64,000 bases of DNA from Candidatus Brevefilum sp. (lineage in GTDB: Bacteria; Chloroflexota; Anaerolineae; Anaerolineales; Anaerolineaceae): assembly GCA_035376985.1 (NCBI GenBank), contig DAOSSA010000004.1, positions 24-64,023 on the forward strand, in the 5' to 3' direction. The first letter of the stretch is position 1; each line of letters begins with the position of its first letter. The translations under genes and the position numbers were made by a program. A model generated the notes under the pieces. It was not told where the DNA came from, ran no database searches, and saw nothing but the letters and a program-made list of their open reading frames with translations. This document shows positions 16,258 to 25,753 of the stretch, in pieces.

Positions 16258-16884
16258 ATGATGATAAAAACCATCTTCTTTGATTTTGGCGGTGTGATTC
16301 TGAAACAGCCCAATGAGCGCAAGTTGAAACTGTGGAAGAAAGCTCTGGGCGTCAAGGACCATCCTGAGGTTCTGGATATGCTGGAAAACCCGCATGACTC
16401 TCAACTGGTCAAGAACATCTGCCTGGGAAAATTGCCAGAGGATTATTTGTGGACCATGATGGCTGAGAAATGGCACCTGAGACCCGCGGTGATTCGGTTC
16501 TTAAAACGAAGGATGTCCTCGAAACGCCAGATAAACCAACCGATTGTCGATTTTTTGGCGGAACTGCATGGTCAATACCAAATTTCGATTTTAAGTAATG
16601 CGGGCGATCAAACCCGGAGGCTGCTGGAGGATACCTACCAGCTAAAGCGTTATGTGGACGATATCATCATTTCTGCAGAGGAGGGAGTGATTAAACCAGA
16701 TCGGCGCATTTTTGAAATCGCTATGTCACGTTTGGGCACAACGCCTGGGCGTTCACTTCTTTTAGATGACCATCTGCCCAATGTAATGGCCGCACGGGAA
16801 TTTGGCATGCATGCGGTGCATTTTATCAGCTCGCACCAGGCGATTGATACGGTGCGCGTCCACCTGGATGGAAGGCATTCCTGA
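16258..16884 (+). CDS. HAD-family phosphatase
   Basis: FFDFGGVI motif I, LSNA motif II, KPDRRIF motif III, LLDD motif IV. Confidence 0.9.
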
Positions 16885-17549
16885 TGCTGTACCTGGTTGC
16901 GACGCCGATTGGCAACCTGGGTGATATTACACTGCGGGCATTGGACGTGTTGCGTTGTGTAGATCTGATTGCCAGCGAAGATACGCGCAAAACCTCAATT
17001 TTGTTGGGACATTATGATATTCACAAGCCCCAAAAGAGCTATCACGCCTTCAACGAGGAGAAGGTTGTGCCAAAGCTGGTTGACCTGCTTCTGGAAGGGA
17101 AATCGATTGCGGTGGTCTCCAGCGCAGGGACGCCGGGCATCTCTGATCCCGGCTATTCGCTGGTGCAGGCTGCGATTGTGCATGAGATTCCGGTCACAGC
17201 GATACCGGGCCCCAACGCCCTGGTGCTTGCGTTGACCTTATCGGGCTTACCCGGGCACAGTTTTACATATAAGGGCTTCTCGCCACGCAAATCCGCAGCA
17301 CGTCGGCGGTTTATCAGCACTGAAGCGGAATCGCCCCATACTTTGATCTTCTATGAAAGCCCTCACAGGATCCAGGCGTTTCTGGCAGATGCGTTGGCTG
17401 TCCTGGGAGATCGACAGGCAGCGCTGGCTAACGATTTAACCAAGAAGTTTGAATCCCTTCAACGGGGTCGATTGAGCGAACTACTGGAAACATTTAATCA
17501 GGAAGCCCCCCGCGGCGAATACACGGTGGTGATTGAAGGTGCGCGGTAG
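16884..17549 (+). CDS. rsmI: 16S rRNA (cytidine1402-2'-O)-methyltransferase, copy 1
   Basis: [45 protein letters not shown]. Confidence 0.92.
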
Positions 17550-17557
17550 GCGCTTTC

Positions 17558-18313
17558 TCAGAACTTGAAGGGCGAAAAGTTGGTTTCATCGTCGAAAACG
17601 TCGATACCTTCTGTGTGTTTTAACCTGTTAACAACCCGGTAGGTGAGGGGTGTTACGACGATTTCGATACCAAGTTTAAAGATATAATTAGTAATGGTCA
17701 GACTCCAGAACAAGCTCCATGGGAACACACCCAGGGCACTGGCAATTAAGATGAAGGTAAAGGTGTCAAAAGCCTGTCCGATGACACTGCTGCCGATCGT
17801 GCGAGCCCACAGGAATTTCCCTTTGGTACGGATTTTCATCGAAGCCATGACAATGGCATTGGAAAAAGATCCAGCCAGATAGCCTGCCAGGCTAGCCACA
17901 ACGATGGCACCCGAGCTCATGCTCCCCAGTATCTTGTTGAAGTTTTCCTGGCCGACCCTGGTCTGCCAGGTGACCTCTCCGGGAAGCACCTGGACAAACC
18001 AGAACACCAGCGCACTGAAGGCCAGGGCGCCAAAGCCGAGCCAGATAATGCGCCTTGAGCGTTTGAAACCGTAAACTTCGGTCAGAACATCACCAACGAT
18101 ATAGCTGATTGGGAACAGGATTGTCCCGGCGTCAAAGCTGAGAGACAAGTTCCCCAGGCGGGCTCCCCAATCGATGATCTTGGCAGAGGAGGCAATATTG
18201 CTGAGTACCAGTGTAAGGACAAAGATCGTTGTGAGGATGTCCAGATAATGAAAGGATTGTGTTTCGGAGAGAGTGTTTTGTTTTTTCACAGTAGGCTCCG
18301 TTTGAATACTCAA
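17558..18313 (-). CDS. yhhQ: queuosine precursor transporter (YhhQ/VUT family)
   Basis: LFPISYIVGDVLTEVYGFKRSRRIIWLGF and ARTIGSSVIGQAFDT motifs; multiple TM helices. Confidence 0.88.
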   Translation of the reverse strand: MSIQTEPTVKKQNTLSETQSFHYLDILTTIFVLTLVLSNIASSAKIIDWGARLGNLSLSFDAGTILFPISYIVGDVLTEVYGFKRSRRIIWLGFGALAFSALVFWFVQVLPGEVTWQTRVGQENFNKILGSMSSGAIVVASLAGYLAGSFSNAIVMASMKIRTKGKFLWARTIGSSVIGQAFDTFTFILIASALGVFPWSLFWSLTITNYIFKLGIEIVVTPLTYRVVNRLKHTEGIDVFDDETNFSPFKF

Positions 18314-18330: not shown

Positions 18331-19074
18331 ATGCATCATTTCTTTTTAAGCCCGGATGACATCCACGATTTACAGGTCATCTTCCCTGCCCAGGTTTCTC
18401 ACCAAATCAAGCATGTCTTACGCCTGGCGACAGGCGATCGTGTCGCTGTGCTGGACAATTGTGGGTCAATCTACACTGTAGTTCTGCGGAATGAAACTGC
18501 AGGAGGTCAACGCGTTGGTGATATTGTTAGTACTCAAATGGCTACATCCGAACCCCAGGTGCAGATTTCGCTTTTCATTGGACTGTCCAGCCGTGAAAAG
18601 ATGGAGTGGATTTTCCAGAAGGGCACTGAAATTGGTGTGTCTGCTTTTTGCCCTTTTGTTTCTACACGGACATTGGTGAGCAATACCGGATTGACTGAGG
18701 GAAAAATGTCTCGCTGGAAGCGGATCATCCAGGAAGCAGCAGAACAATCCGGGCGTGGAAAGCTGCCGGTGCTGAATGCACCGGAGAAATTGGCTGATTG
18801 CTTGCGTAATGCAACCCAAACGAATGGGCTGTGCCTGCTGGCTTGGGAAGGCTTGCCTGAGGATGGGGCTAACTTAAAGGAAGCACTGCGAGGTTTCACA
18901 GGAGACAAGCTGGCGTTGTTCGTGGGACCAGAAGGCGGCTTTTCTGATGCTGAAGTGGCTTCAGCGCAGGGTGCTGGATGCCAGGTGGTTACCCTGGGCG
19001 CCCGGATTTTTCGAATGGAAACAGCAGCGATTGTTTTTCCGGCCCTGGCTCTTCATGAGCTTGGTCATGTATAA
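18331..19074 (+). CDS. rsmE: 16S rRNA (uracil1498-N3)-methyltransferase
   Basis: HQIKHVLRL, QKGTEIGV, EAAEQSGR, VGPEGGFS, LGARIFRMETAA. Confidence 0.95.
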   Translation: MHHFFLSPDDIHDLQVIFPAQVSHQIKHVLRLATGDRVAVLDNCGSIYTVVLRNETAGGQRVGDIVSTQMATSEPQVQISLFIGLSSREKMEWIFQKGTEIGVSAFCPFVSTRTLVSNTGLTEGKMSRWKRIIQEAAEQSGRGKLPVLNAPEKLADCLRNATQTNGLCLLAWEGLPEDGANLKEALRGFTGDKLALFVGPEGGFSDAEVASAQGAGCQVVTLGARIFRMETAAIVFPALALHELGHV

Positions 19075-20082: not shown

Positions 20083-20813
20083 AAACCCCACTGACCTGGG
20101 TGGTCAATACAATCATTCGGACCATCCTGTATTGCCTGCTTAAAATTGACATATCAGAGATAAAAAAGGTGCCCAAACGTGGTCCGCTGATTCTTGCTGT
20201 TAATCATGTTAATTTTTTGGATGCGCCTGTGCTGATCACCCACATGGGATCACGGGCATTTACAGGGTTTGCCAAACGCGAAACCTGGGATAACCCATTG
20301 ACGGCATTTTTGTTTACCCTGTGGGGCGGAATTCCGATTGATCGTGGGATTGCTGATTTCAATGCTTTCAAAGCGGCTAAAGATGCGTTACTGGTCAAAA
20401 AGCAACTTTTAGCCATCGCTCCGGAAGGTACACGTTCAGGCGACGGTCGTTTGCATCAAGGAAAACCCGGTATCGCCATCCTGGCGAGCAAGGCTGATGT
20501 ACCAATCCTCCCGATGGTCTATTATGGGCACGAAGATATCTTACAAAATCTTCGCCGATTAAAACGGACACCATTTCATGTAAGAGTTGGTAAACCCTTT
20601 CGGTGTAAGTTCTCTGGTCAGGAGAAAAACAAAGAGGTTATGCAAGCCGTAACCGACGCCATCATGCTGGAAATTGCTGACCTGCTGCCTGAGAAATACC
20701 ACGGAGAATATCGGGGAGTTACGATTGACCGTCGAAAGTACCTTGAATATAACGATTCAACTTCGGGGGAGGAGATTCCGCAGGCGCTTGGAGAGCAATT
20801 TTCCCACGCCTAA
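20079..20813 (+). CDS. plsC: 1-acyl-sn-glycerol-3-phosphate acyltransferase
   Basis: NHVNFLD (HxxxxD) and APEGTRS motifs. Confidence 0.88.
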   Translation: MKTPLTWVVNTIIRTILYCLLKIDISEIKKVPKRGPLILAVNHVNFLDAPVLITHMGSRAFTGFAKRETWDNPLTAFLFTLWGGIPIDRGIADFNAFKAAKDALLVKKQLLAIAPEGTRSGDGRLHQGKPGIAILASKADVPILPMVYYGHEDILQNLRRLKRTPFHVRVGKPFRCKFSGQEKNKEVMQAVTDAIMLEIADLLPEKYHGEYRGVTIDRRKYLEYNDSTSGEEIPQALGEQFSHA

Positions 20814-22214
20814 ATTGCGACCGCTTTTATCTTCCACCAGCAGATACTGACCTTGAGGGTGCAGATCTATTTTAGGATTGCGAATATCCCGCCGATCGAT
20901 CCATTGGGCGAGTTGTGAATCATCAAGCTGGGCTTTTCCCCGGATAAATAAGTGACCGAAACGGCTGGCAAATTCATAAGAAGGGTGGAAATTTTCTGAA
21001 ATCCACTGACCGATTTGCATGCCAATCAACTCAAAGGGGAGCGTTTGGAACCTTTCGAGGTAGACCAGAGGAATGAGAAAGATGCCTTCGTGTCGCTTAA
21101 AAAGCTGGAGGTGATACCCGGCGAGGATTTCATCAAGGGCAAATCCATAAGCATCCCAAATCTGTTCACAAATCGCAGACTGAAGATTGAGCGTTGCTGC
21201 TTCAAGCTGGGTGCGAGAAAAGTCGCGGGTGGGGGGCGCCTGAGGTGTTACAGGGATTACGCCTGTTTTTCGTAAACGTGCGCAAAAGAAGCCCGACATG
21301 CCGGTCTGATGCGGCCAGAGTCGCAGAGTATTCTGTAGTGAGGGATGGAAAACCTGGTCTGCATAGGCGGTCAGCCCGGGGACATGGAAGGGTACCCTGC
21401 TGGCGAGATCTTCAACAATCAGGGCGCCGGGGTACAACTTGAGAACCTGGTCAATCACAGCCTCGTTCTCCTCGGGAGCCAGTGAGCAGGTGGCGTAAAC
21501 GATCTGTCCGCCAATCTTAAGGGCGCTCAACCCGCTGATGAGAAGCCGGATTTGCATTTCTTGCAGACGAAGCCGTTCTGAATCGGTGGTTTCCCTGAGG
21601 GGGTGGCTGGGTGTCGGGCGGAGGTTCTCCATGCTGCAGGGGGCATCCAGCAAGATGCTATCAAAAGTCTCGGGATACCACCTGCCAAAGGATTCTCCGG
21701 GAAAATGGGTTACAGCCTGGTTGATGGCGCCCCAATTAGCGATGACGGAGCGTAAAGCGGGGATGCGTCTCTGGCTGGCATCATTGGCGATGATAAAACC
21801 CATATCCTGTGTGCGGTCAACCAGGTGGGTTGTTTTTCCACCGGGTGAGGCGGCTATGTCGAGGATCAACGGTCGCTGTGCCTCAAAATCCAGCAGGCTG
21901 ACCGGAACCATTGAGGCTGCATCCTGCAGGTAATATCCGCCCATGCTGTGTTCTATCGTCATGCCGGGCGAGGTGCTGGCGGATTCGATCAGCCAGGCGT
22001 TGTCACAGAAGGTGATAGGTTTAATTTCCCAGCCGTAACGTTCTGCCAGGGCATGGATCGATGTTGCTGGGTGCGCTTTGAGTGAATTGAGCCGAATACC
22101 GGTGGACAGGGGGGCATCCTGAATTGCCCGGATCTTCTGGAGTTCTTCCTCGCTGAGGATCTCTGAAAAACGTGCCAGGCTTTGGACTAGTTTACTCGCG
22201 CCGGGATCAGCCAT
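20757..22214 (-). CDS. rsmF: RsmF/NOP2-family rRNA cytosine-C5 methyltransferase
   Basis: QDAASM, DIAASPGGKTT, DAPCS (motif IV), YATCSLAPEENE (motif VI), C-terminal RsmF-like domain. Confidence 0.85.
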   Translation of the reverse strand: MADPGASKLVQSLARFSEILSEEELQKIRAIQDAPLSTGIRLNSLKAHPATSIHALAERYGWEIKPITFCDNAWLIESASTSPGMTIEHSMGGYYLQDAASMVPVSLLDFEAQRPLILDIAASPGGKTTHLVDRTQDMGFIIANDASQRRIPALRSVIANWGAINQAVTHFPGESFGRWYPETFDSILLDAPCSMENLRPTPSHPLRETTDSERLRLQEMQIRLLISGLSALKIGGQIVYATCSLAPEENEAVIDQVLKLYPGALIVEDLASRVPFHVPGLTAYADQVFHPSLQNTLRLWPHQTGMSGFFCARLRKTGVIPVTPQAPPTRDFSRTQLEAATLNLQSAICEQIWDAYGFALDEILAGYHLQLFKRHEGIFLIPLVYLERFQTLPFELIGMQIGQWISENFHPSYEFASRFGHLFIRGKAQLDDSQLAQWIDRRDIRNPKIDLHPQGQYLLVEDKSGRNLGVGKLLSKRLRNLLPRS

Positions 22215-23040
22215 TGTGAGCTCCCAGGCTTTTATCAATCAGAAAGACAATCTCGTTTTCGATCTTTATTTCCTGAATGGGCAGGCCTTCAGGCAGGTTG
22301 GAAAAGACCAAATCTCGATGCCTTTGTTGCAGGCTGTGGGTGCCGGAGAGGTCAGTAGCAGGTAAGGAGACAGCCAGTGTTTTAACGTTCAGAGCACTCC
22401 AGAAGGCACGGTTGCATCCGGGTTGACGCTTTTCGAAACGATGCGCCTCTTTGAAGAAAAACGCGAGATCAGCGGCGCCTTCTGGTGGGTTTACGAGGAT
22501 GTCCCTGTTTTCAGCCAGGGGTGTTAATCCGATTTTTGATAGAAAAAGGTTGATAAAGTCCACCCTGGGTTGGATGATATCAAAGGCATGGTAGCGGACT
22601 GAAGCAGGTAGCCCCATCCAGGGGAACGCCAGGGGATGCAAGCCGCAAGCCAGGTCGAAGATCACCTGCGGTTTTCCAGGCGCATGGAAAAGTTGTGGGT
22701 AAAACTCGTCCATAATTGGGATGCGTTCTGCTGTGGAAGCATGCTGAGAGAGCACTTTGAGGCAAAAATTCTTCAACTGCGGTGAATCGAGGGCTAAATC
22801 TTCGATTTTAAACAGTTCTTTTGTCAGGGCAGGATAATCGGGCTGACCCAGGTAGGGTGCGACGATGTTGTGTAATTTCCGCCGAACGGCTTTGAGGGTC
22901 GCTTTTTGTGACCCCTGCTGAAGCGTTTCTTGTCGGACCAGGTCTTCAACGGTGGCCTGATTTAGCCCCAGATGACGGTATTTCTTTGTGCTGAGGATCT
23001 GACCCACAAGCCCCTGGACGAGCTGGTTTTCAACCTTCAT
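22207..23040 (-). CDS. ArmA/Rmt-family 16S rRNA m7G1405-type methyltransferase, divergent paralogue
   Basis: HASTAER, DLACGLHPLAF, YHAFDI, LAFFFK motifs; C-terminal motifs deviate from the family. Confidence 0.8.
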   Translation of the reverse strand: MKVENQLVQGLVGQILSTKKYRHLGLNQATVEDLVRQETLQQGSQKATLKAVRRKLHNIVAPYLGQPDYPALTKELFKIEDLALDSPQLKNFCLKVLSQHASTAERIPIMDEFYPQLFHAPGKPQVIFDLACGLHPLAFPWMGLPASVRYHAFDIIQPRVDFINLFLSKIGLTPLAENRDILVNPPEGAADLAFFFKEAHRFEKRQPGCNRAFWSALNVKTLAVSLPATDLSGTHSLQQRHRDLVFSNLPEGLPIQEIKIENEIVFLIDKSLGAHNG

Positions 23041-23843
23041 TTTGTCACCAAAAAAGCCAGTTCGGTTTGGAAAAGAAACTCCTGGATACCCCAGGGTTTT
23101 TCACTGACCAGCTTTAAAAAATGCTCTTTGTAGAATGAGGACATGCCTTTTTTGCGCCCAGCCAGGCTATGAATAGGAAAGCTGACCAGGATGTGATCCG
23201 CAGGTATGCTCTCCAGCAAACGGTCACCGATAGATTTTTCCATTTGTTCCAAACAGGGGATCGATTTAAGTAAAAAGGCTACCTGGGCTCTTTCGGCGGG
23301 AACCTCAGCTACCAAATCGCAGGACTCAGCCGCGCCGTTGATGTTGAATTGACCAAAAAAAGCATTGACCAATTCCAGCAGATCCAGGTAGATGTCGCAG
23401 GCAAAATACTGTACATGGTCTGCAACGGGCATCCAGGGGAGCGCCAGGGGGTTCATCCCACACGCCAAATCGTTGATGCTGGTGACCGGGGCGATCGGCG
23501 CCAGGCAGGTTTGGAAAAAAGTTTCAATAATGGGCAGGCGTTCTTCAGTGGAGGCATGGGATTGCAGCATCCGCCGGCAGAAATCCTGGGTTTCAGCCGC
23601 ATTGAGCTCTCTGGGGAGATCTTCCAACTGTTGGGTGGCAGCGGCGTAACCTGCTTTATGTTTGAGATAGGCACCGCCAACCTGGTGGAGTTTGTTGCGC
23701 ACAAACTTGACAGCAGCTTTACCTGTCAAACCAGCAGTGATTGCTTCCTGGCTGAGACGCCGAACCAGGCTCGAGGTGATGTGCTTGTATTTAGCCCCCG
23801 AGAGCACTTGGATGACTAACTGCTCGAGCTGTGGGTTACCCAT
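23037..23843 (-). CDS. ArmA/Rmt-family 16S rRNA (guanine1405-N7)-methyltransferase
   Basis: HASTEERL, DLACGMNPLAL, ACDI, FLLKSIPCLEQ, VSFPIHSLAGRKKGM all match RmtB/ArmA/Sgm signatures. Confidence 0.9.
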   Translation of the reverse strand: MGNPQLEQLVIQVLSGAKYKHITSSLVRRLSQEAITAGLTGKAAVKFVRNKLHQVGGAYLKHKAGYAAATQQLEDLPRELNAAETQDFCRRMLQSHASTEERLPIIETFFQTCLAPIAPVTSINDLACGMNPLALPWMPVADHVQYFACDIYLDLLELVNAFFGQFNINGAAESCDLVAEVPAERAQVAFLLKSIPCLEQMEKSIGDRLLESIPADHILVSFPIHSLAGRKKGMSSFYKEHFLKLVSEKPWGIQEFLFQTELAFLVTK

Positions 23844-24933
23844 GGTCGTTCTGCAGCCTTTCTGTGAGCTGGGTCATGAAGCGCAGGTTGTGCAGGGTCG
23901 CCAGGCGGTGATAAAGCCAGTCTCCGGTTTTGAAAAGGTGGTGCAGATAACCCAGGCTGTAGTGCTGGCACACGGGGCAATCGCAATCATCTGATATTGG
24001 TCGATTGACTTTGATGTGTTTTTTATCCTGGAGATAGATATATTCCAGCCAGTCTTCACCCTGCAGGGGCTGACCCGGTGGAATGTTGTAACGCATCAAA
24101 CGGCCGTGTCGGGCATCACGGGTGGGCAAGGCGCAATCAAAGAGGTCATAGCCGAGGCGAAAAGTTTTAACCAGGTTGAGCGGATGCCCGATCCCCAGCG
24201 CGTGCATGGGATAAGTGGAAGGCACCAGCTCTCGAGTCAGTCCGACAATGTCTGTGAGCAATTGTCCCTGGGAATCCAACGGCCAACCGCCATAGCCAAA
24301 GGCGTCAAAGCCGATCTCCAACAAGCCATCTGCGCATTCCTGGCGCAGGTCGGTGTAACCACCGCCTTGAATCACGCCGAAGATCAGGGGGCGGTCTGCA
24401 CCGGAAATTTTACGCTGATCGAGTTGGAGATTGTATTCCTGCTTGCAGCGCTTCGCCCAATCCAGAGTGCGCTTGACACTGATTTCTTGCTCTGCGCGAG
24501 ACGCGTCCACGTGGGTACAGTCATCGAGGCAGATGACCACATCACTGCCGTAACTGATCTGTAATTGGATGCTCTTCTCTGGCGAGAGGAGCAGTTTTCT
24601 GCCCTTGCCTTCGGGACGGAAGAGGATGCCGCGGTCGGTGAGGGTGCCGAACTGGTCGGATTGGTGGATCAGCGAGTATGCCTGGAATCCGCCCGAATCG
24701 GTCACAATCACTTTGTGCCAGTCGGCAAAGTTGTGCAAGCCAGAAAAGGATTGAATGGTACTCGAACCGGGTTTCTGCATCAGGTGAAAGGTGTTCATAA
24801 CCAGGCCTTGAATGCCAATGCTCTCCAAGTCGCGTGAATCCACTGCGCGCACATACCCCAGGGTTGCATCGGGGAGAAAAGCTGGTAAGGCGAGAGCTTT
24901 ATCCCGAATTTGCATTTTTTGTGATGTCTGCAT
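23836..24933 (-). CDS. tgt: tRNA-guanine transglycosylase
   Basis: TDSGGFQ, QGG, FDCALPTRDARHG, zinc site CDCPVC...H. Confidence 0.9.
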   Translation of the reverse strand: MQTSQKMQIRDKALALPAFLPDATLGYVRAVDSRDLESIGIQGLVMNTFHLMQKPGSSTIQSFSGLHNFADWHKVIVTDSGGFQAYSLIHQSDQFGTLTDRGILFRPEGKGRKLLLSPEKSIQLQISYGSDVVICLDDCTHVDASRAEQEISVKRTLDWAKRCKQEYNLQLDQRKISGADRPLIFGVIQGGGYTDLRQECADGLLEIGFDAFGYGGWPLDSQGQLLTDIVGLTRELVPSTYPMHALGIGHPLNLVKTFRLGYDLFDCALPTRDARHGRLMRYNIPPGQPLQGEDWLEYIYLQDKKHIKVNRPISDDCDCPVCQHYSLGYLHHLFKTGDWLYHRLATLHNLRFMTQLTERLQNDHG

Positions 24934-24934
24934 T

Positions 24935-25636
24935 TTAGCGTTTCCTTTGCAGCTTGTTGAGGTTGAGGATCAGGACAAACTCACGCTTCTGACCAGTGAC
25001 CTTTGGCAGGATGTCTGCGATGTGCCCCCGGTAGATCGTTTCTTGCTTGAGGGTCAGGTCGCATGCCAGGAGGATATCCTGGTTCTTCCCAAACACAGAC
25101 TGAACTTCCGTCAGAAGTTTGGTCAGACGGTAAGGCGTGTCCATCAGAATCACCGGGACGGATTCGGATTTATATTTGGCAAGAAAACTTTCGCGATGCT
25201 CGCTTTTTACAGGTGGGAACCCTGCAAATATGAAGCGATCGATGGGAAAATTACTAAGTGAAAGAGCACCCATCAAAGAGGAAGGCCCCGGAACCGGTGA
25301 AATCGAGATGCCCGCCTGGTAGCACAGGTCGAGCAGGTGCCGCCCCGGGTCGGCAAAAACAGGCGTGCCGGCATCTGAGATAATGGCCATAGATTCGCCC
25401 TGGGCCAGGCGCAGGACGATGTGATCCGATTCCTCGGATTCATTGTGTTCGTTTAAGGTGAGCAGTTCGTTTTCTACACCCAGTTGACGGAGCAGGCGGC
25501 TCCCCTGGCGGACTTCTTCACAAATGATGGCATCGACCTGCTTGAGGATATCCAGAGCGCGCAACGTAATGTCACGGGGGTTGCCAATGGGCGTTGCAAT
25601 GATGTACAAAATGCCCAATTTTTCTGTGTGTGTCAT
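24935..25636 (-). CDS. rsmI: RsmI-family methyltransferase, copy 2
   Basis: LYIIATPIGNPRDITLRAL, SDAGTPVFADPG, PVPGPSS, MDTPYRL. Confidence 0.88.
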   Translation of the reverse strand: MTHTEKLGILYIIATPIGNPRDITLRALDILKQVDAIICEEVRQGSRLLRQLGVENELLTLNEHNESEESDHIVLRLAQGESMAIISDAGTPVFADPGRHLLDLCYQAGISISPVPGPSSLMGALSLSNFPIDRFIFAGFPPVKSEHRESFLAKYKSESVPVILMDTPYRLTKLLTEVQSVFGKNQDILLACDLTLKQETIYRGHIADILPKVTGQKREFVLILNLNKLQRKR

Positions 25637-25753
25637 GGGTTTAATTGTAGCATTACTCCCAGTGTGTTGAGAAGTTGATCTTTTAGAAACTGGTCAAGGG
25701 GTTGGTAATATGGCATAATCTAAGCAGGTTTGTTGTCAAGGAATTGGAGAATC

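Follow-up and report, generated by a model that had tools for sequence, protein, structure and literature searches.

Methylation of the 16S ribosomal RNA (rRNA) at the N7 position of guanine 1405 (m7G1405) is known as a resistance mark, found in aminoglycoside producers and conferred by mobile clinical genes, and the genes for enzymes modifying the decoding centre of the rRNA are scattered in model bacteria. The enzymes known to form m7G1405 (viz. ArmA, RmtA-H, Sgm and FmrO) are either acquired or belong to the producers, and their genes are mobile or form part of biosynthetic clusters. Homologs of these proteins from Chloroflexi have earlier been drawn as 'uncharacterized' in a tree of the Rmt enzymes (bioRxiv 10.1101/712810); that paper is limited to their placement in the tree, without gene context, a second paralogue or a link to any tRNA-guanine transglycosylase (TGT), and the proteins in question are most likely the same as, or close relatives of, those assigned below to clades A1 and A2. 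Here we describe an operon of the Anaerolineae (Chloroflexota) bacterium Candidatus Brevefilum sp. (assembly GCA_035376985.1), which is located in a stretch of 64,000 nucleotides (nt) of contig DAOSSA010000004.1, referred to below as the window. The operon lies wholly on the minus strand and consists of five co-oriented open reading frames (ORFs) in the order rsmI2-tgt2-fmrO-A-fmrO-B-rsmF (Table 1). Its most unusual feature is tgt2, which encodes a second, divergent paralogue of TGT whose presence depends upon that of FmrO in two phyla. The gene order and tight spacing noted in an earlier sequence-only reading of this DNA are confirmed by the ORF listing of the window: rsmI2 and tgt2 are separated by 1 nt, tgt2 overlaps fmrO-A by 8 nt, fmrO-A overlaps fmrO-B by 4 nt (ATGA), and fmrO-B overlaps rsmF by 8 nt from the ATG start of the latter (22214) or by 32 nt from a TTG start (22238).

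In the sequence-only reading, the tgt gene of this operon was taken for a housekeeping passenger. This view is ruled out by the presence of a canonical tgt (523 bits) on contig C7 of the same genome, with which TGT2 shares only 31% identity. TGT2 matches the Pfam TGT model with 311.8 bits and is recognized by the superfamily model TIGR00449, whereas it falls marginally short of the cut-off for TIGR00430 (305.5 vs. 306.75 bits). Across the class Anaerolineae the scores of TGT proteins are bimodal, with the canonical enzymes at 510–555 bits and TGT2 at 283–338 bits. A protein search of 401 Anaerolineae genomes, where orthologues of TGT2 were defined by at least 47% identity and an E value of at most 1e-80, detected TGT2 in 61 genomes, and every one of these is FmrO-positive, in comparison to 79 FmrO-positive genomes among the 401 overall. 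Outside the genus, tgt2 is found on the same strand as fmrO and at most 1.3 kb from it in 56 of the 75 FmrO-positive genomes of the class; it is directly upstream of fmrO in 45 of these, and the remaining 11 show the order fmrO-rsmI-tgt2. The search was also extended to the whole phylum, using one genome per GTDB species and the TGT2 alignment as the query, and the best 80 of the 541 relatives found were examined. These 80 loci span the Anaerolineae, Ktedonobacteria, Chloroflexia, and Caldilineae and also the Armatimonadota, and in 74 of them fmrO is directly 3' of tgt2, while in the six exceptions FmrO is present elsewhere in the genome (6/6). Among the 80 are tgt2-fmrO pairs of strains available in culture, viz. 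Bellilinea caldifistulae GOMI-1, Dictyobacter aurantiacus S27, and D. alpinus Uno16 (loci L100, L107, and L129).

The relationship does not hold in the opposite direction. Six FmrO-positive genomes of the family f49 (G133, G174, G205, G235, G332, and G428; loci L069-L074) contain a conserved rsmI-fmrO pair but no TGT2, and thus FmrO can stand without TGT2 but not the reverse. In another genome of the same class (G451:C15:78210-80632), TGT2 contains one in-frame TGA and the adjoining FmrO fragments one TAG, an apparent loss of the two genes together. Our searches of the literature on a TGT-FmrO link, on TGT similarity networks in Chloroflexi, and on Rmt genes in Ktedonobacteria found nothing relevant, and no account of the tandem pair of fmrO genes, of the clade formed by FmrO-B, of the coupling to TGT2, or of a cluster with rsmI, rsmE, and rsmF was encountered in the full-text searches. 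The coupling of tgt2 and the FmrO-B clade appear to be new.

An alignment of 41 TGT2 orthologues indicates where this protein departs from the TGTs of Zymomonas mobilis and Escherichia coli. It shares with them the TIM-barrel TGT domain, and the nucleophile D280, along with D102, D156, Q107, G229, G230, R286, R289, and the Cys3His zinc site, is invariant in all 41 sequences (Q203 in 40). Unlike them, TGT2 contains a 13-residue insertion, it is a second copy beside a canonical tgt, its presence is dependent upon FmrO and its gene adjoins fmrO, and it has lost the peptide switch between guanine and preQ1. In the Zymomonas enzyme the Leu231/Ala232 peptide flips, so that with guanine bound the NH of Ala232 is exposed and contacts the guanine N7 via a water molecule, whereas with preQ1 it is the carbonyl that is exposed, the amide being held by Glu235 (PMC3660597). 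In TGT2 the pocket wall opposite position 7 of the base is altered in nearly every orthologue, viz. L231W (40/41), A232P (41/41), V233L (41/41), G234D (36/41), M260L (41/41), and V45D (40/41), and Glu235 has become Ser, Ala, or Gly. As Pro232 lacks an NH and Glu235 is gone, TGT2 is expected to offer no donor to a free N7, and the bulkier side chains would narrow the pocket. To judge from these residues, such a pocket would fit a base with a blocked or cationic N7, e.g., N7-methylguanine (m7G).

These substitutions suggest that the function of TGT2, which would no longer read the N7 of an unmethylated guanine, depends upon the product of FmrO. A more specific form of this proposal, which we put forward only tentatively and regard as unlikely, is that TGT2 is a methylation-primed RNA transglycosylase acting on m7G in the rRNA, at G1405 or a nearby guanine of helix 44. 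With no hydrogen bond to a free N7, but with the invariant Trp and the new Asp residues, its pocket would recognize the cationic m7G, which as a good leaving group might be exchanged either for plain guanine (i.e., erasure of the mark) or for a salvaged 7-deazaguanine; FmrO-B, where it is present, would then methylate the state left by TGT2. If FmrO and TGT2 do share a nucleotide, then FmrO should act first and TGT2 second, which agrees with the one-way phyletic dependence described above. Were this proposal true, base exchange in ribosomal RNA would have been encountered for the first time, as would a pathway with a methyl mark as the handle for transglycosylation.

The strongest of the other explanations is that TGT2 is a second tRNA-guanine transglycosylase with another base preference (e.g., for a salvaged precursor), which is merely co-regulated with fmrO and does not share its substrate. 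The retention by TGT2 of all of the catalytic, zinc-binding, and RNA-phosphate-binding residues of the tRNA enzymes is in its favor, as is the translation-related nature of the entire neighborhood. Salvage also appears to be in use: QueA is present (C7:6538-7545), QueC was not found in this 98%-complete genome, and a transporter for queuosine precursors is located 2.4 kb from the operon, which suggests that the 7-deazaguanine bases (preQ0/preQ1) are taken up rather than made. However, the tRNA set of this organism is ordinary, with one gene each for the Asn, Asp, His, and Tyr tRNAs. Additionally, co-regulation leaves unexplained why TGT2 never occurs without FmrO (61/61 and 80/80 in the two surveys), why the bicistronic pair is kept over two phyla while the other neighbors change, and why the N7-reading switch, which is needed for binding the outgoing G34, is lost in 41 of 41 orthologues. 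We therefore consider this explanation unlikely and return to the reading in which TGT2 depends upon the product of FmrO.

The fmrO genes themselves are native, chromosomal, and vertically inherited, and they are under purifying selection, as the sequence-only reading had supposed of their origin. FmrO is present in 34 of 36 other genomes of the same genus, mostly in two copies, and the operon together with both of its flanks is syntenic in all 18 of the genus genomes that were fetched. Pairwise ratios of nonsynonymous to synonymous substitution (dN/dS) against three members of the genus are 0.07–0.37 for all five genes, a range matching that of the flanking housekeeping genes. The GC content over the locus is 0.50–0.55, the same as that of the flanks, and inspection of the ORFs and of Pfam/NCBIfam matches in the neighborhood revealed no transposase, insertion sequence, integron, or aminoglycoside-biosynthesis genes near the operon, only housekeeping neighbors. 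Acquisition by horizontal transfer or on a mobile element is ruled out by this host-like composition, the absence of mobile genes, and the fixed synteny throughout the genus. DNA runs containing the locus come from metagenomes of sludge, bioreactors, and anaerobic digesters, and contigs from the metatranscriptomes of three anaerobic digesters match all five genes with 95–100% identity, some of them bridging the rsmF/fmrO-B and tgt2/rsmI2 junctions. The best explanation of these observations is an operon that is ancient, conserved, and transcribed, and that is made up of RNA-modification enzymes. In B. caldifistulae, two FmrO genes are found about 3 kb apart (G466:C23:17082-17786 and 20521-21261).

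Both of the FmrO proteins match the Pfam FmrO model (PF07091) over its full length, with 159.1 bits for FmrO-A and 122.3 bits for FmrO-B (gathering cut-off 27), and they are 34% identical to each other. In comparison with the PDB, their closest solved structures are those of Sgm, RmtF, RmtB, RmtC, and ArmA. Residues were examined, in RmtC numbering, in an alignment of 87 Chloroflexota sequences (46 of clade A1, 10 of clade A2, and 31 of clade B) together with RmtE, RmtF, RmtB1, ArmA, and RmtC taken from annotated plasmids. FmrO-A retains K20, Y21, R50, H54, Y60, H105, S107, T108, E110, R111, D134, C137, N140, P141, D160, K204, P207, L209, G240, R241, G244, M245, and Y249. The S-adenosylmethionine (SAM) site (H105, S107, E110, R111, D134, and D160) is invariant in all three clades, and T108 is Thr or Ser in every aligned sequence but one. 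The residues K20, Y21, R50, and H54, which dock the enzyme on the 30S subunit, are likewise retained by FmrO-A and FmrO-B and across the three clades, with K43 and K47 mostly Lys. Of the base contacts, K204 is conserved in FmrO-A as well as FmrO-B, and so is Y60 (as Tyr or Phe). The elements that distort helix 44 (P207, L209, R241, G244, and M245) are kept by clades A1 and A2; in A1, M245 is found in 46 of 46 sequences and G244 in 45 of 46. Mutation of K20, R50, H54, K204, R241, or M245 abolishes the activity of RmtC (PMC10288597; bioRxiv 10.1101/712810). As the base pocket of FmrO-A is unchanged, it should act on the N7 of an ordinary guanine, and the 16S rRNA of this organism has the standard G1405, U1406, C1407, and A1408. 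From these residue patterns, FmrO-A is likely to be an intrinsic 16S rRNA G1405-N7 methyltransferase.

In a maximum-likelihood tree, where the clinical enzymes were represented by RmtE, RmtF, RmtB1, ArmA, and RmtC (the producer enzymes Sgm, KgmB, and FmrO not being part of it), the Chloroflexota proteins formed three groups. The five clinical enzymes fall outside of these with a support of 92 in the Shimodaira-Hasegawa-like approximate likelihood ratio test (SH-aLRT). Clade A1, which includes FmrO-A, comprises 34 of the sequences in the tree (SH-aLRT 98); clade A2 comprises 10, with the gene order fmrO-rsmI-tgt2; and the B clade is monophyletic, with 19 sequences from the families f1, f13, and f65 (SH-aLRT 99). 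Both proteins are thus separate from the clade of the five clinical enzymes, and both are also below the cut-off of the NCBIfam equivalog model discussed below, so that the suggestion in the sequence-only reading of a source of new Rmt enzymes is not supported as regards clinical ones. The FmrO-positive genomes of the class belong to 52 genera. The Chloroflexota proteins share with ArmA, RmtA-H, Sgm, and FmrO the full-length FmrO domain and the SAM-binding and N-terminal docking residues, and FmrO-A further shares with the known m7G1405 enzymes the R241/G244/M245 loop and the K204/P207/L209 motif. In contrast to the acquired plasmid-borne enzymes, to which FmrO-A and FmrO-B are only 25–33% identical, and to those of the producers, the Chloroflexota genes are chromosomal, syntenic, and class-wide, and they are always partnered by rRNA housekeeping genes and usually by TGT2.

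The sequence-only reading had described two tandem Rmt enzymes, each with the signature set of this family. This holds for the full set in FmrO-A and for the family membership of both proteins, but the two are not equivalent, as FmrO-B belongs to a distinct clade in which the region that handles the target is rewired. While the SAM site, the docking residues, Y60, and K204 are all kept, the loop 237-246 is one residue shorter and has lost its G-M motif (G-G-R-x-K-G-M is replaced by G-[TG]-[HR]-[SN]-L, with L245 in 30 of 31 sequences), and the 204-212 motif K-L-L-P-x-L-E has become K-E-[AM]-[HP]-R-F-E, with E205 and R208 in 31 of 31 sequences and F209 in 25. Position 236 in FmrO-B is not basic. 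An initial argument that FmrO-B is dead through the loss of M245 was withdrawn, since Leu replaces Met245 in some functional homologs (PMC10288597); the weight of the argument is instead on the joint, clade-wide rewriting of the surface that would handle helix 44, i.e., the shortened loop and the 204-212 motif, and not on L245 alone. That FmrO-B is a decaying copy is ruled out by the lack of stop codons, a dN/dS of 0.10–0.21, and the invariant residues of its own that are found across the clade. FmrO-B always occurs in genomes that also carry an A copy, and it is often directly before rsmE or rsmF. A nested pattern, with FmrO-B confined to TGT2-positive genomes and these to genomes with FmrO-A, is not claimed here: all 13 of the B-positive genomes in the sample of the class have TGT2, but the chance of this is about 0.12 given that TGT2 is found in about 85% of the FmrO-positive genomes.

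Since the FmrO family is known only from resistance and from self-protection of the producers, and FmrO-A has the residues for formation of m7G1405, both genes could be aminoglycoside-resistance determinants maintained under antibiotic pressure from producers, with the duplication providing dosage or a broader spectrum. We consider this improbable, as no biosynthetic or mobile genes are found nearby, the inheritance is deep and vertical with fixed synteny, and FmrO-B is diverged in its target-handling region and not redundant. Further, the hosts live by fermentation in anaerobic digesters, where the uptake of aminoglycosides is expected to be poor, and the partner genes encode housekeeping rRNA enzymes. 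The context of rsmI, rsmF, and rsmE at the decoding centre fits better with the housekeeping role that the sequence-only reading had allowed for than with a defense against drugs. It is equally improbable that FmrO-B is a non-catalytic or regulatory partner, which either forms a heterodimer with FmrO-A or guides TGT2 to the ribosome. The 4-nt overlap of fmrO-A and fmrO-B suggests coupled translation, FmrO-B is found only along with FmrO-A, and it is the loop distorting helix 44 that is altered in it; all of these would suit a partner. However, a pseudo-enzyme need not keep the SAM-binding residues, Y60, and K204, which are conserved across the 31 B sequences, and in the family f65 FmrO-B is located kilobases away from FmrO-A, adjoining rsmE. 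We also know of no report of Rmt enzymes as heterodimers.

The other genes of the operon point to the same region of the ribosome. The product of rsmI2 matches the Pfam TP_methylase model with 104.8 bits and TIGR00096 with 196.1 bits, above its cut-off of 167.9, and it is 38% identical to that of a second copy, rsmI1, located outside the operon. An RsmI-like gene is linked to tgt2 and fmrO in other families as well, in the order fmrO-rsmI-tgt2, and the recurring neighbors of fmrO in those families are rsmI, rsmE, and rsmF, with rsmE directly after fmrO-B. The RsmF-like protein matches the Pfam Methyltr_RsmB-F and RsmF_N models, with a weak match to PUA, and its best NCBIfam model is RsmF (NF008898; 256.7 bits vs. 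a cut-off of 588). A tblastn search of the genome with this protein detected no second gene of the NOL1/NOP2/Sun family, so that the rsmF of the operon is not an extra copy and a homolog of RsmB (which forms 5-methylcytidine at position 967) appears to be missing. RsmI-, RsmF-, and RsmE-type genes, with helix 44 targets beside G1405, are common to Brevefilum and E. coli; whereas the RsmI, RsmH, RsmF, and RsmE of E. coli are dispersed, those of Brevefilum form a cluster in which rsmI is present twice, and they are transcribed together with FmrO and TGT2.

The activities and targets that we propose for these enzymes are predicted from the gene order, conservation, co-occurrence, residue patterns, selection, and transcription observed above. 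In the reading that we favor, and which on balance is probable, the locus is a housekeeping decoding-centre operon that includes a G1405-N7 enzyme (FmrO-A), a retargeted relative of it (FmrO-B), and a TGT2 dependent upon the product of FmrO. Its enzymes would be aimed at the top of helix 44 of the 16S rRNA, i.e., at the decoding centre. FmrO-A would dock on the 30S subunit in the manner of RmtC and ArmA and methylate the N7 of G1405 as a constitutive mark, with high-level resistance to the 4,6-disubstituted aminoglycosides as a by-product. FmrO-B, derived from an old duplication, would still bind SAM and keep the docking surface and the purine contacts of Y60 and K204; as it would handle helix 44 differently, its target is probably a different nucleotide, or else the same region in another modification state. 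TGT2, which is found only where FmrO exists and usually immediately upstream of it, would be a catalytically intact base-exchange enzyme, and RsmI2 and RsmF, with RsmE encoded nearby, would add the neighboring C1402-, C1407-, and U1498-type marks.

Several points weigh against this reading. The clustering of genes for translation factors may mean co-regulation only, and TGT2 may be no more than a tRNA enzyme that differs in its base specificity. Both FmrO-A (208.7 bits) and FmrO-B (151.2 bits) miss the cut-off of 250 for the NCBIfam Rmt equivalog model NF000466. Position 236, where a Lys (K236) is described as conserved in all characterized enzymes, is His in FmrO-A and R, H, Q, or K across clade A1, and as L245 is tolerated in some homologs, FmrO-B might still act on G1405. 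The co-occurrence counts are phylogenetically non-independent, although no fewer than 12 families, from several classes and two phyla, are covered by them, and carry-over of DNA is possible in the metatranscriptome contigs. Lastly, it is highly improbable that the substrate of the TGT2/FmrO module is a tRNA or some other small RNA rather than 16S rRNA, for although the characterized bacterial TGTs to our knowledge all act on tRNA and we know of no case of rRNA transglycosylation, FmrO-A and FmrO-B conserve K20, Y21, K43, K47, R50, and H54, the residues by which RmtC contacts the 30S surface at helices 24, 27, and 45, and the 30S subunit is the substrate for each of the recurrent partners (rsmI, rsmE, and rsmF).

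On the reading of a housekeeping decoding-centre operon, a major environmental phylum appears to have long maintained the writer of m7G1405 as a housekeeping gene, which bears upon the origin of this family and upon the role of the mark in the absence of drugs. The strict dependence of an altered TGT upon FmrO was unexpected, and it suggests a second, undescribed chemical step at the decoding centre, while the B clade would provide a natural example of the retargeting of an Rmt scaffold. The cultured carriers of the tgt2-fmrO pair named above make these questions directly answerable.

Table 1. Positions in the window of the genes of the operon and of related features in its vicinity (aa, amino acids)
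Feature	Position	Strand	Description
rsmI2	24935..25636	-	233 aa; second RsmI-type (TP_methylase) 16S C1402 2'-O-methyltransferase homolog; first gene of the operon
tgt2	23836..24933	-	365 aa; divergent tRNA-guanine transglycosylase paralogue
fmrO-A	23037..23843	-	268 aa; Rmt/FmrO-family methyltransferase, predicted 16S rRNA m7G1405 enzyme
fmrO-B	22207..23040	-	277 aa; divergent FmrO paralogue (B clade)
rsmF-like	20757..22214 (ATG) or 22238 (TTG)	-	485 aa (ATG) or 493 aa (TTG); putative 16S rRNA 5-methylcytidine (C1407-type) methyltransferase; last gene of the operon
Promoter-like site, extended -10	25644..25673	-	murJ/rsmI2 divergent spacer, just 5' of rsmI2; consensus scan, weak
rsmE (16S 3-methyluridine 1498 methyltransferase)	18331..19074	+	Pfam Methyltrans_RNA; RsmE NCBIfam models
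Queuosine-precursor (preQ0/preQ1) transporter, YhhQ/Vut_1 type	17558..18313	-	Pfam Vut_1 159.7 bits; TIGR00697 110 bits vs. cut-off 50.95
rsmI1 (better-scoring RsmI copy)	16884..17549	+	221 aa; TIGR00096 228.7 bits

The operon is flanked by the divergent murJ on one side and, on the other, by plsC, a diacylglycerol kinase gene, rsmE, the queuosine-precursor transporter, and the second rsmI. In a scan for promoters and terminators, the number of promoter-like sites such as that listed in Table 1 was not above the expectation from shuffled sequence. The minus-strand rsmF and the plus-strand plsC converge, with their 3' ends sharing 57 bp (window 20757-20813), and the same arrangement is seen in the orthologues within the genus. 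The 16S rRNA gene of this genome is located outside the window, on the minus strand of contig C15 at about 57427, and the top of its helix 44 reads GTACACACCGCCCGTCAAGTCATGG. Manual assignment of E. coli numbering gives A at position 1409, where E. coli has C, and G at position 1491; with this numbering, an A/G opposition would replace the C1409-G1491 pair, which in E. coli lines the site for aminoglycosides.

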